A DNA stretch of 19,219 nucleotides from a virus (UHGV-0267650); one strand, 5' to 3'. Shown: positions 1 through 6,142, counted from the stretch's first letter. Numbers and translations are program-made. Notes: generated from the sequence alone by a model not told the origin.

Positions 1-119
1 CGTAACACTCCCTCACCGATCCATTTATCAAAGAGTGATTTTTCGAATGCGTCTTTGAAAGCATCGATCATTGTTACCTGCCAATGCCCGTACCGATTTT
101 TAAGTCGGGCATCGGAAAA

Positions 120-386
120 CCGTCACAACTATCACGCATCCTGAAATCACACCTTAACCACATGATTAATTTAAATAAATATTGTGACGGTAAAACCATC
201 ACAAAACGTAACGTAAACAGTCACACCCAATAAATTCAGTAAGTTATAAAACAGAGTTGTGATGGCTTAAGACCGTCACACTGGGATGCTGTTGTGATAG
301 TTTTGTGATGGTTTTCAATACCACTATTTACTTATATTTATCATAGAGATAGTTATTATTTTTAAGTCTTGTGACGTTTGTGACGG
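120..386. repeat. Array of at least ten copies of an 8-bp motif TGTGAYRG (or its complement CYRTCACA) in direct and inverted pairs around an AT-rich core
   Basis: Copies read directly: 120-127 (-), 129-136 (-), 183-190 (+), 196-203 (-), 258-265 (+), 273-280 (-), 293-300 (+), 304-311 (+), 370-376 (+), 379-386 (+). The pair at 258-280 forms a 23-bp near-palindrome TGTGATGG-CTTAAGA-CCGTCACA. Confidence 0.7.
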
Positions 387-1016
387 TTTTCCGATGGTCC
401 CCCTCAATTTTTGAAAAAATCAGAATCGGTCAGAAATCACCCTGATTTGTTGGTAGTTTTGTATATCTATCTGTTAGTGACTTGAACACTGTAGCGTATA
501 CGTTAATGCAGGTATGGCGATGGTTCATGCTGTGCAAAGTATTTCAGTTCCGCATTTCATTGCTATTACGCGCCAGAGCACGTCAGCTAAGGCCTGGACA
601 CTTCCACGCACTGACCTGATCTCGCTGCGACCGTTACGTAAAAAGTCACGTAATCGCTGTTAACCCCGCATGAAACCCGGCACCGGCATTGTTCACCCAC
701 AGCCGGTCATCGCACAAAAACTGAAATCCTTGAAATTTGTTTCACACATTTCAGTTGGCGAACTACTGCCAAAGCCCCAGCGCTGGCGCGGTCTGGCGAT
801 GTGTTTTGTACCACCGGAAAAACTGAAATCATTCTCAACACGAAAACCGCAGGCGGGTGCGGTGTAGCGCCGTTTTCGTCACTTCCGCCGTTATTTCGTC
901 ACGGCAGGCTGTATCAGCGCCTTGCTGCGCTACTGAAGTTAATCAGGTTGGGATGAACGGGTGCAGATAATTACGGCGCTCAGAATGCGTCTGGTGAGGT
1001 CTGGTGGATACGATAA

Positions 1017-1035
1017 AGCCCGCATAATGCGGGCT
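1017..1035 (-). terminator. Rho-independent terminator candidate closing the leftward late operon
   Basis: Perfect 8-bp GC-rich inverted repeat AGCCCGCA / TGCGGGCT with a 3-nt loop, about 10 nt downstream of the stop of the last tail gene (1046). On the - strand transcript the hairpin is followed by UUAUCGUAU, which is only moderately U-rich. Confidence 0.5.
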
Positions 1036-1045
1036 GGTTGAGTAA

Positions 1046-2749
1046 TCAGGCAATAATGTTCTGGTACTTGCTCCGGGTTTCTCCGGCTTTCGTGGCGGTC
1101 TGCGTGAATGATGCCGCATTGGTCGGTGTGCCGACGCTGGGGTGTGAGTGACTGGCGCACTGCCTTGCCAGTTCTGCCAGTAAATCAATGGTATCCAGCA
1201 TCATGGTCAGGGCGTTGATACTCTCGCTGCCAATATGGACAGTTGCCCCCATGACCTGCTGACCGCCAGTGGCCACCGATTTACGTAATGCGGCAATCTT
1301 TTCTGTCAGGGTTCCCCCCACATCAACATCCACGGTGCCGGCTACTTTCGTGGATTGTTTGCCAGTTATATCGGCTTCGTCATTCCCCTCAATGCTGGCC
1401 AGCCTGTTACCTTTCACCGCCTGGCTATAATCACCGGCGCTTACCTGCTGGATGGCTCCGGCCAGCAGTGTGGCGGTTCCCAGTACCGTAGTTTTATCCG
1501 TGGCTTTCACCGTGGTTTCACGGCTGACCAGTTCGCGCTGTTCTGTATCGGCTTTTACAGTTCGCACCATTGATGTTTCGCTGATGGTCTGATCGGTCTG
1601 CCTTACCCAGTCCCCCGCCTGAGTCACTCTCTGGGATACTTCTTCCCGCTGCTGCTGTAATTGCTCACCGGGTTTAACGTCCGGCAGACTGGTGCCATCC
1701 GGTAGCGTCTGCCTGATAAAGGGTTTATCCGGTCTGCCTCCTGTGAATGCGACCTCAACCAGCGTCCCTTCTGGCGGGAACTGAAACATACCTGAATCAT
1801 TCCCGGCCATTGGTACCGGCAGCGGCACCGCTGAATAAACAGGCGTCTGATTGTCCGGGTTTCCGTCTGCGTCAAGCAGCTGAACGTCCACGGCGTAACG
1901 TGGACGGAAGGGATCGGCAAAGTTACCGCTTTTTACCGGCTCTGAATGCGCCACGACTCTGGCCATCTTTGGCAAATGAAGCCCGGATGCCAGTTCCGGG
2001 TAATGGCTTTCAATCTGCCGTTGCGCCGGTGTTTTCTGCAAAGGTTTACCCGTTGCGCGGTTTCTCGGCGTCCATGTGATCGCCATCGTGTCATTCGTCA
2101 GGTGAACTTTAGTCACGCGTTCACCGTTCATCTCCACCCCTGGCCGCATAGTCTGGATCACTGGTAATGTCACAGAGTTACCGCCAGCAGCCCCCTGGCT
2201 GAACTCTGACGGGATTTCTACGGGACGACCGGCAAATAATGACTTTTCTGCGCCGCCGACGTAAAGCGAACCATCAGGCAACTGGTACCAGATGTAATCC
2301 AGGATACTGAACGCCCTGCCCAGATTGTTCAGCAACTGATAACCTGTACCGTTATGGGTAAAATGTGGGATGGGGGTATCGCTGTACTGTGCATCAGGCA
2401 CACTGACCGTGATCCCGCTGTTTTCTTCCAGCCAGCCCGCAATTTCACGCAAAGTCGGGTGTTGAAACGAACATGGCCACATCCTTTCAAACACACCTAC
2501 CAGCTCACGAATGAACAGACGCTGAAAACCTTTTTCCGCGGGCTGCGATCGCTCCACATACCCCGTAAACCAGCGCAAAAGCAGATCGGTATACCCCACA
2601 TCCAGCCGCACCAGTTTTCCGGTGTAATCGGTTGTTGTCTCTGCGGTGATGAAGCCCCGGCCGCAGTTGTTCAGCTCCAGTACCAGGCTGGCGTCCGCCA
2701 TGTGAACTTCATCCGTTGAAAGGTAAAGGCGTTTTACTGGTTTCATCAT
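1046..2749 (-). CDS. Baseplate central spike protein: gpV-like OB-fold and apex in the C-terminal half, with a ~300-aa N-terminal extension of unknown identity (possibly hub-like)
   Basis: 567-aa ORF, last gene of the operon. Residues ~321-345 PPEGTLVEVAFTGGRPDKPFI resemble the OB-fold motif of P2 gpV as I recall it (PSVGEQVLILAVGGELDTAFV). Near the C-terminus ASHSHPSVGTPT resembles the gpV apex motif HTHKHPGDSGGTTGSP. Its start codon overlaps the stop of the upstream ORF. Confidence 0.6.
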   Translation of the reverse strand: MMKPVKRLYLSTDEVHMADASLVLELNNCGRGFITAETTTDYTGKLVRLDVGYTDLLLRWFTGYVERSQPAEKGFQRLFIRELVGVFERMWPCSFQHPTLREIAGWLEENSGITVSVPDAQYSDTPIPHFTHNGTGYQLLNNLGRAFSILDYIWYQLPDGSLYVGGAEKSLFAGRPVEIPSEFSQGAAGGNSVTLPVIQTMRPGVEMNGERVTKVHLTNDTMAITWTPRNRATGKPLQKTPAQRQIESHYPELASGLHLPKMARVVAHSEPVKSGNFADPFRPRYAVDVQLLDADGNPDNQTPVYSAVPLPVPMAGNDSGMFQFPPEGTLVEVAFTGGRPDKPFIRQTLPDGTSLPDVKPGEQLQQQREEVSQRVTQAGDWVRQTDQTISETSMVRTVKADTEQRELVSRETTVKATDKTTVLGTATLLAGAIQQVSAGDYSQAVKGNRLASIEGNDEADITGKQSTKVAGTVDVDVGGTLTEKIAALRKSVATGGQQVMGATVHIGSESINALTMMLDTIDLLAELARQCASHSHPSVGTPTNAASFTQTATKAGETRSKYQNIIA

Positions 2750-4568: not shown

Positions 4569-6142
4569 TATGCGAGTCTCACTATGTAGTTAAATGCAAT
4601 ATTCTTAACGGTCGTTTCTGCGTTGCCCGACGCGACGACGGTAATGGTGTGACTGTGTGCGCCAATGGCTACGGTATGAGAGTGAGCGCCAATACCTACG
4701 GAGTGATTATGTGCGCCAATGGCTACGGTGTGCGCGTGGTTTCCCGCTGAACTGGTATTTACGGTATATGCAGTACCACTTCCGCCTGCTGATCTGGCTA
4801 TTCCTGAACCATCAGTGCCTCGCGTGGTAAAACCGTGTGCGTGCGCCCCTGTCGTATTTGTCGTTTTTGTACCGTGGTCAAACGTACTCGCCGTTTTAGT
4901 ACCGTAATCAAATGAGGATGTTGATTTCGTTCCCAGATCGGTACTTGATGCACTGGCAGTGTGAGCATGGGATTTATTGCCATCATCTTCACAGGACAAT
5001 ACTGCGCGGCCATCTGGTTTTCCTTTGATTGTCTGGCGGCGCATGTCAGTAATAACACCCGATGGATACGCAGCAGCCAGCAAAGGATATGCCGCTGTAT
5101 TAAAAGACTGCCCTTGCATAATTGCCCATCCAGTAGGTGGGATATCTGTTGGCCAGGGAAGCGGCACACCAACCGGCAGAACATCACTACGACTTAAAAC
5201 GGCCAGTTCACCCAGATCCAGGCTTTTTCTTGCCTTTACCTTGTCGTTAACATCAGCAAGGTTTGCATCCTTACGCAAAAAATCGATGCTGGCCTGCTGT
5301 TCTCCCAGGTTACCTTTTGGCCGTAAATCCGTGATGTTGCCATCCACATCAATGCTGGCCACCGCAAACACGTAATGCTGAACCCCGTTCTGAACGTAAT
5401 CAGCAAGATTTGCTGCCACCGTGATTTTGCTCTGCACATTCCAGACACTAGTCAGTGTCCCTGTCCAGCACACATCCAGCCAGACTTTTACCGGCTTTGT
5501 CGTCACCGTAATATTCTGGTTCGCTGCCAGTGACGCACGAAGTCCAGCCACATAACCCGTGCCTTTCGTGACAAAAAACTGATTGCCGGTTTTGGCTACC
5601 AGATACCCGTCACCAAAAAACGCCGCCGCGCCATAAATATCCATATTTTCCAGGCGCTGGCGCTCATCCATTCCGGCCATACGCGCGGTGAAATCAATCT
5701 GCCAGGTTTCAGCAGGCGTACTAATCCCGGTTTCCGTCTGTGCGCCGTTGTACTCCATCAGAAACGAGCGGGTCAGCACGTTTCCCTGTTGCCCTTCTTT
5801 TGTTTTCAGTTTCTGCTGTGATGGTGCATGGACAATCATTGCCAGCGTACCGCTGGCCTTATTGAGCAGACCGATCCAGTTAAAACTGAAATCACCCACA
5901 TCTGCGCCCAGCACTACGGAATAAACCACCCCATTTTCATTCACCACACCCGTGCGGGTAACAGCCTGCCGGTGAACAATCTGTGCTGTCGGGGGTAACA
6001 CTTCATTACGGTCAACAGGTGTATCCGGGTTTAAATCCGGCACACTGGCAAATACAAATTCGTCCAGTAGTACCGGTTCACCCGTAGCGCCCTGTTGCGC
6101 TTTCCAGTTTTCAAATGCCAGTGTGATGGCTGTCTGTGACAT
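4568..6142 (-). CDS. Tail fiber protein (P2 gpH / Mu gpS-like N-terminus; His-rich repeat C-terminal tip)
   Basis: 524-aa ORF with AAGGAG about 8 nt upstream of the ATG. The N-terminal ~100 aa resemble the conserved N-terminal domain of P2 H / Mu S fibers. The C-terminus carries tandem 11-aa repeats rich in H-x-H ([32 protein letters not shown]), and the gene is followed by a Tfa gene. Confidence 0.75.

Follow-up and report, generated by a model that had tools for sequence, protein, structure and literature searches.

An ordered array of TGTGAYRG octamers in an Evevirus-type P2-like prophage is a probable replication origin

What is a dense cluster of short repeats doing in the non-coding DNA beyond the last tail gene of a prophage? 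We addressed this question for an array of TGTGAYRG octamers near the left end of a viral sequence, UHGV-0267650 (the stretch analysed, 19,219 nucleotides long, is referred to here as the window). The initial annotation had offered four architectures for the array: iterons at a replication origin, a partition centromere, an operator array or recombinase arm-type sites. It had also suggested that the array marked either an unusual prophage boundary or an unrecognised maintenance or regulatory module. Of the four, iterons at a replication origin are favoured by a layout like that of phage P4 and by co-occurrence with one family of primases. Comparison of sequences leads us to conclude that the array is probably a cis-acting replication element, most likely the vegetative theta origin of an Evevirus-type P2-like prophage.

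A dense, ordered octamer array inside a P2-like prophage

The array is real and highly non-random. Eight exact octamers lie within positions 120–386, starting at 120(−), 183(+), 196(−), 258(+), 273(−), 293(+), 304(+) and 379(+), and three further copies with one mismatch (129–136(−), 218–225(−) and 370–377(+)) bring the total to 11 in 267 bp. About 0.05 matches would be expected by chance: in 20,000 simulations with the local composition of positions 100–400 the mean was 0.053 and the maximum 2, against the 8 observed. When the whole window was simulated 1,000 times with a first-order Markov model, the densest 270 bp anywhere held 3 copies. A shuffled-sequence control also put the motif density far above expectation, with 11 exact matches in the whole 19,219-base window compared to 2.74 expected, a count that none of 200 shuffles reached.

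The three tandem and two inverted pairs originally described proved correct on recount in their members, periods and spacers. Tandem pairs 120/129 and 370/379 have a 9-bp period and pair 293/304 an 11-bp period, while the inverted pairs 183/196 and 258/273 are separated by the 5-bp spacer TAAAA and by CTTAAGA, respectively. Octamers in the left half mostly point one way and those in the right half mostly the opposite way, and the whole is bounded by a 26-nt inverted repeat whose arms are 88% complementary (Table 1). The GC content of the array region is 36%, against 53% for the window. The AT-rich stretch reported at about 312–368 was upheld at 81% AT, and on its composition we regard it as a candidate DNA-unwinding element. 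A single weak IHF-like site (155–167, one mismatch to consensus, not significant window-wide) lies in the array, and the matching gaps of the array in phage phiCTX hold annotated IHF sites.

Two other kinds of element were considered for this region and rejected. The bounding inverted repeat is not a transposon end or MITE, because homology with relatives is continuous from about 96 to 1050 and there is no insertion footprint. Nor does the region hold a known RNA, as an Rfam scan of positions 1–1100 gave only sub-threshold chance matches.

Table 1. Features of the window, and arrays of similar layout in other elements. A dot in the strand column marks a feature listed without strand.
Element	Feature	Position	Strand	Basis or context
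Window	Start of a gene (MIDAFKDAFEKSLFDKWIGEGVL...) running off the left edge; outside the array	1..70	-	Read from sequence
Window	Bounding inverted repeat, left arm; holds outer pair 120-127 + 129-136 (9-bp period)	110..135	.	Repeat search
Window	Iteron array, 11x TGTGAYRG	120..386	.	Motif counts and simulations; octamers conserved in alignment with E. coli prophage and ev239
Window	AT-rich spacer, 74% AT, between outer pair and first inverted pair	137..182	.	Composition
Window	AT-rich stretch, 81% AT, GC down to 0.22	312..368	.	Composition
Window	Bounding inverted repeat, right arm; overlaps outer tandem pair 370-377 + 379-386	371..396	.	Repeat search
Window	Conserved non-coding spacer, array to cos	387..700	.	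Kept together with array in compared relatives
Window	cos region; cohesive-end site ~848-870 (CCGCAGGCGGGTGCGGTGTAGCGCC); CTGAAAT/ATTTCAG repeats either side	716..900	.	ev239 adapter read-through
Window	Last tail-module gene, 567 aa; start of structural genes	1046..2749	-	Gene calls, comparison with relatives
phiCTX	GGTAAT array, 12 copies	35107-35380		Annotated 'R3 repeats' with two IHF sites, between attP and cosR
RSY1	GGTAAY array	16-293		Between attP and cos
Smp131	GGTAAY array	33054-33330		
Halomonas phage vB_HboP_4908	GGTAAY array	Near start of record		
UFJF_PfPro	CTGACAG array	813-1081		
phi3	CCGGAACA array, 15 copies			Directly after primase gene, far from int
Clone 2F_1	GTTACAA array	End of record		
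E. coli guaA-site P2-type prophage	AAGGTAAC array			Between cos and attR; primase 53% identical
E. coli 12-kb satellite-like island L290	CGGTTACA array, 13 copies			1.3 kb downstream of primase; primase 51% identical
Soil contigs	ATCGTGCA array, short			Directly after primase stop codon

Comparison with related genomes placed the array in an Evevirus-type P2-like prophage. Positions 96–1050 of the window share 86% identity with a prophage that 22 of 5,426 complete E. coli genomes carry and 79% identity with phage ESSI2_ev239 (Peduoviridae, Evevirus; ev239 below), and the array is also conserved in Erwinia, Cedecea and Pseudocitrobacter. The E. coli gene order is raiA, att junction, acyltransferase cargo gene, array, about 500 bp, and then the tail genes. 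The 29-kb ev239 genome runs from tail and head genes through terminase, portal, Ogr, an SSB-like protein and an 885-aa 'DNA primase' to exonuclease, Cox, C, integrase, attP, acyltransferase and array. All four E. coli genomes that we opened have the array inside the prophage, beside the tail genes, and the array is thus not ordinary host intergenic DNA. Deletion derivatives of the raiA-site prophage were also seen in E. coli YPE10 and BY63, one of them truncated by IS1; many phage genes are gone from both, but the array and the acyltransferase gene remain.

The structural genes of the window are of the P2-like phage type and lie on the minus strand. To the left of the array, homology begins at about position 93–112 in every relative compared, and for this reason we assign the gene that starts at position 70 to a variable cargo (moron) slot. 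Its 23-aa N-terminus had no relative in phages, and the left-flank DNA had no match in genome or metagenome contigs. For the 567-aa tail protein, a search for identical proteins returned no match.

To the right of the array lies the cos site, which was placed from the ev239 record. There, a Nextera adapter directly follows ...CCGCAGGCGGG and the sequence resumes at GGTGCGGTGTAG. This junction marks the physical end of the genome, at window 848–870, and puts the array some 460 bp in from the right end of the virion DNA. More than 120 IMG/VR contigs share the cos core. The 'unusual prophage boundary' thus came from a misread gene order, in which ogr and att were expected after the last tail gene; it is cos that follows, as in the HP1/phiCTX-like layout (PMC2771037), and Ogr adjoins the portal gene in ev239.

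Some further details of this region were recorded. CTGAAAT(C)/ATTTCAG repeats occur at window 141–149, 541–549, 719–735/740–756 and 822–831, with one 17-nt inverted pair among them; those around cos are also conserved in relatives with a P2 gpA-type replication gene, and terminase or IHF may bind them. At its end (29127–29203) the ev239 record reads into Nextera adapter and poly-A; its first ~116 nt (1–116) match window 5835–5957 at 98% and appear to be chimeric.

A shared layout and a primase-helicase family

The window ends before the replication module, so the primase is known from relatives and not from the window's own phage. Every close relative with a readable replication module (ev239, the E. 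coli raiA-site prophages and IMG/VR contigs) encodes the 885-aa protein, in which an N-terminal Cys motif (Zn-ribbon) is followed by Toprim_3, DUF5906 (SF3 helicase) and a C-terminal domain. This is the gene with which the array travels: the array is conserved in related prophages and accompanies the 885-aa primase-helicase family. Among IMG/VR contigs that contain a first 21-mer from the array, 12 of 18 have the primase on the same contig or genome, the others being too short to judge, and a second 21-mer recovered one further primase-bearing contig. In all, we found an array of this kind in about 11 primase-bearing genomes or islands. The family has more than 2,100 proteins and includes phiCTX orf37, RSY1 ORF47 and the Smp131 primase.

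Sister prophages that encode a P2 gpA-type 'replication endonuclease', which served as controls, lack the array, although their tail genes are nearly identical and their cos core is unchanged. One of these sisters (L007) has eight copies of a different motif, GCACATA, in about 160 bp (21041–21200), between the small terminase and head-completion genes.

The exception to co-occurrence is one provirus (L011 + L076; IMGVR_UViG_2824588292_000014), which has a 96%-identical primase but showed no array in the 26.6 kb read out of its 27.6 kb. Upstream of its cos, a 286-bp element bounded by inverted repeats of 35 nt has taken over. The predicted ends of this provirus were trimmed at gene boundaries, and the array may therefore lie outside them, or the prophage may be defective. 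Nine other primase-bearing proviruses, whose cos-proximal ends fall outside the sequence read, gave no match to exact array or cos-flank patterns. The 286-bp element (L076 226–511; L125; L205 6001–6499) takes the place of array and spacer upstream of cos in two proviruses, and a copy was also seen next to a Mu-like remnant in E. coli. Nearby CCACTAAC repeats may be att arm sites.

Which part of the primase might contact the octamers? The last 155 aa gave a confident structural model (pLDDT 88.9) with a helix/strand order typical of a winged helix. Fold searches with this model returned no significant match to any solved structure; among the weak Foldseek matches, also not significant, the best were DNA-binding winged-helix proteins, for example TcpK in complex with oriT. 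By sequence or profile, the C-terminus had no similarity to the P4 alpha origin-binding domain or to PDB chains, and C-terminal domain identities do not group by iteron motif. From the model, we infer that the DNA-binding domain is probably this C-terminal winged-helix-like domain.

The layout of the array extends well beyond its closest relatives. In nearly every complete or nearly complete primase-family genome read, inner clusters in low-GC DNA lie between two outer tandem pairs; these pairs have a 9-bp period, are inverted relative to each other and stand about 255–280 bp apart in most genomes and about 310 bp in phi3 (Table 1). The motif itself is lineage-specific, with TGTGAYGG, GGTAAY, GGTTACA, CCGGAACA, CTGACAG and ATCGTGCA in different lineages. 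Motif offsets align closely among the window (0, 9, 63, 76, 98, 138, 153, 173, 184, 250 and 259), phiCTX (0, 9, 74, 85, 96, 105, 171, 183, 193, 205, 259 and 268) and the E. coli island L290 (0, 9, 84, 95, 102, 118, 128, 179, 188, 199, 213, 266 and 275). Mae-JY29 is a weaker case of the layout, and a further locus (L296) has a ~280-bp GGTAAC array with a shared flank.

Flanking sequences are held in common as well. The left-arm flank ATCGGAAAA followed by the iteron is common to the window, RSY1 and the E. coli guaA-site prophage, as is the boundary context TCGGAAAA plus iteron, which is mirrored as iteron plus TTTTCCGA. Two IMG/VR proviruses, L115 and L148 (IMGVR_UViG_2850535167_000002 and 3300010279_000222, not necessarily in this order), have a GGTTACA array at the homologous position, and downstream of it DNA homologous to the spacer and cos of the window (634–871 in L115; 441–871 in L148, which retains this DNA though its iterons are of another type). 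A GGTTACA array upstream of homologous spacer and cos means that the iteron has been swapped within a conserved scaffold. A search aimed at the replication gene of these two proviruses gave no match in E. coli genomes or phages, and a portal-based scan did not recover their contigs.

The position of the array relative to att and cos varies: it comes directly after the primase in phi3 and the soil contigs, and at some distance downstream of it in L290. The conserved array thus co-occurs with the primase family and is independent of att, cos and neighbouring genes.

Packaging, recombination, regulation and partition

The array might instead resemble cosB, with sites at which the small terminase subunit (gpM) and IHF would bind to aid recognition of cos; we give this reading a small chance of being right. 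In the window, phiCTX, RSY1, Smp131 and the guaA-site prophage the array does lie only 170–460 bp from cos, and IHF sites are annotated inside the phiCTX array. Moreover, gpM is only 50% identical between array-bearing prophages and their array-less gpA-type sisters, so the comparison of sisters described above leaves room for a terminase-specific site. What argues against a packaging role is mainly the arrays of phi3, L290, the soil contigs and a P4-like satellite (L177), because the array follows the primase there, not cos. L177 has an Evevirus-type cos but a different iteron, GGTAACA, placed directly after its own primase. In addition, more than 100 contigs retain the cos core with its CTGAAAT flanks but have no array.

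There is a slim chance that the octamers are integrase arm-type or accessory sites, or a relic or secondary attP. The ev239 attP has the same grammar as the array, an inverted pair with tandem pairs, and its motif TGTGGACGG is one base from the iteron TGTGACGG. Arrays also adjoin attP in phiCTX, RSY1 and P4. However, the true attP of ev239 lies elsewhere, directly after int, with arm repeats TGTGGAC(A/G)G, and the array is about 1.4 kb further on, beyond the moron gene. In integrated prophages the array is not split but intact, at least 1.2 kb from the att junction, and in E. coli as in ev239 a moron gene comes between the two. It is also unchanged across at least four integrase clusters with 46–81% mutual identity, and far from int in phi3. 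The arm repeats of phiCTX and RSY1 are unrelated to the array motif.

Two observations on arm sites stand beside these. Within the ev239 record the attP arms (26742–26966) form an inverted pair and two tandem pairs, with one extra G compared to TGTGACGG. The arm repeats of Smp131 are AATTTTACCGG (PMC3931495), and they resemble the GGTAAC iterons of that phage.

An operator, silencer or insulator, through which a phage regulator (C, Cox, Ogr or another) would act on the cargo gene or on read-through to cos, has equally slim prospects. Octamers at this density would permit cooperative binding of a regulator, and a minus-strand gene starts 50–100 bp from the array in the window and in L115 and L148. 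However, promoter-like sites occur at chance level (a promoter scan found one weak site against 1.9 expected, not above shuffles), and the neighbouring gene varies in identity and strand among relatives. In E. coli and ev239 this neighbour is the plus-strand acyltransferase gene, which ends before the array, and there is therefore no constant promoter relationship. The C/Cox region of ev239 has a different repeat of its own, TTGCAAA, and arrays are present in phages with unrelated regulatory modules.

A partition or plasmid-maintenance centromere for an episomal stage is scarcely credible: clustered direct and inverted repeats bear a general resemblance to parC/parS, but no ParA, ParB or ParR gene is annotated in the complete 29-kb ev239 genome or the E. 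coli prophages, the relatives found are all integrase-bearing and chromosomal (26 of 26), and window 1–1050 had no match among 72,556 plasmids.

A putative origin and its relation to known systems

The reading that we prefer, a replication origin, makes the array a known kind of element and not a new maintenance system. By analogy with P4, the primase-helicase would bind the octamers and melt the DNA, and the array would function as an origin. We propose that this phage lineage, lacking the P2 gpA rolling-circle initiator, replicates with the 885-aa primase-helicase. After derepression, this protein would bind the TGTGAYGG octamers, the contact probably being made by its C-terminal winged-helix-like domain. 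Cooperative binding of neighbouring protein molecules could be made possible by the tandem pairs 9–11 bp apart and by the inverted pairs. With about 250 bp between them, the two outer inverted pairs, together with the AT-rich gaps, possibly bent by IHF, might then let the DNA wrap or loop. Melting would take place in the AT-rich stretch at 312–368, where the helicase would load and the primase domain would prime synthesis.

P4 is among the closest known systems in its organization. Its alpha primase-helicase binds type 1 repeats. In the annotated P4 genome, crr contains ten TGTTCACC octamers in 300 bp, in both orientations and with tandem pairs at a 9-bp period, and occupies the interval that separates the attP arms from the alpha gene's end; the P4 ori has six octamers. 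The window array is likewise a short octamer repeated in both orientations, with tandem pairs at 9–11 bp, in low-GC DNA. The primase family shares with alpha the domain order Zn ribbon, Toprim primase, SF3 helicase and C-terminal domain (PMC2777425). The two systems also differ. P4 needs two elements, ori and crr, about 4.7 kb apart, and its crr is itself a duplicated 120-bp unit, whereas the window type is one dyad-symmetric module. ev239 has a single octamer cluster, its other four exact matches being scattered inside genes. Sequence similarity between the initiators is marginal (E = 0.002 across the Toprim and Walker regions).

The R3 repeats of phiCTX have the same layout and map position as the window array, and the phiCTX primase is homologous (41% identity). 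They differ in motif, GGTAAT as against TGTGAYGG, and in abutting attP, where E. coli and ev239 have a moron between array and attP. No function is given for the R3 region in the NC_003278 annotation or the open-access literature searched, and a literature search for a replication origin of the 885-aa primase family found none.

Other origins are less alike. In theta plasmids and lambdoid phages (RepA-type origins; lambda ori with its O protein), iterons are typically direct repeats of about 17–22 bp, bound by a dedicated initiator that recruits host helicase and primase. The window repeats, in contrast, are 8 bp long and in both orientations, and their presumed binder is itself a helicase-primase. 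The origin of P2 and 186 is a rolling-circle nick site inside gene A. This too is the replication origin of a P2-like phage, but it works by another mechanism, and the gpA-type sisters are without the array.

We suggest tentatively, as one possible generalization, that the whole family of more than 2,100 P4-alpha-like primase-helicases of P2-like phages and satellites shares one single-module, dyad-symmetric origin design in which only the iteron is swapped between lineages. This design may consist of outer inverted 9-bp-spaced pairs about 265 bp apart, with an iteron of 6–8 bp. If so, iteron swaps would uncouple the replication of helpers, satellites and prophages that share a host, and the sequence could reveal their specificity. 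The phiCTX R3 repeats would gain the function that record and literature leave unassigned. If the origin reading of the window array is right, this array would mark the replication origin of widespread Enterobacterales P2-like prophages that do without the P2 gpA/ori system, and the phiCTX repeat region would be explained as well. A rule for primase-family elements would follow, which is to seek low-GC DNA of about 270 bp with inverted tandem pairs of a short motif at its two ends. Such origins, with their cognate primase-helicases, could serve as compact, mutually independent replicons and could help to predict replication cross-activation between satellites and helper phages. The origin reading extends the P4 paradigm and adds no new principle to it.

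Two satellite-type elements were seen in the course of the comparison. The P4-like satellite with the Evevirus-type cos (L177, 4996–9855; IMGVR_UViG_3300031414_000125) has the order DUF927-type primase, GGTAACA iteron array, Ogr/Delta, cos and GmrSD-like nuclease, and also encodes a P2-family capsid protein and an Ash protein. The satellite-like 12-kb island of E. coli (L290, 5593–18107; GCA_011890865.2) lies between gcd and hpt and contains two integrase genes, AlpA, the family primase (P0095), the 13-copy CGGTTACA array, Ogr, a P2-capsid-like gene and a PemK toxin gene.
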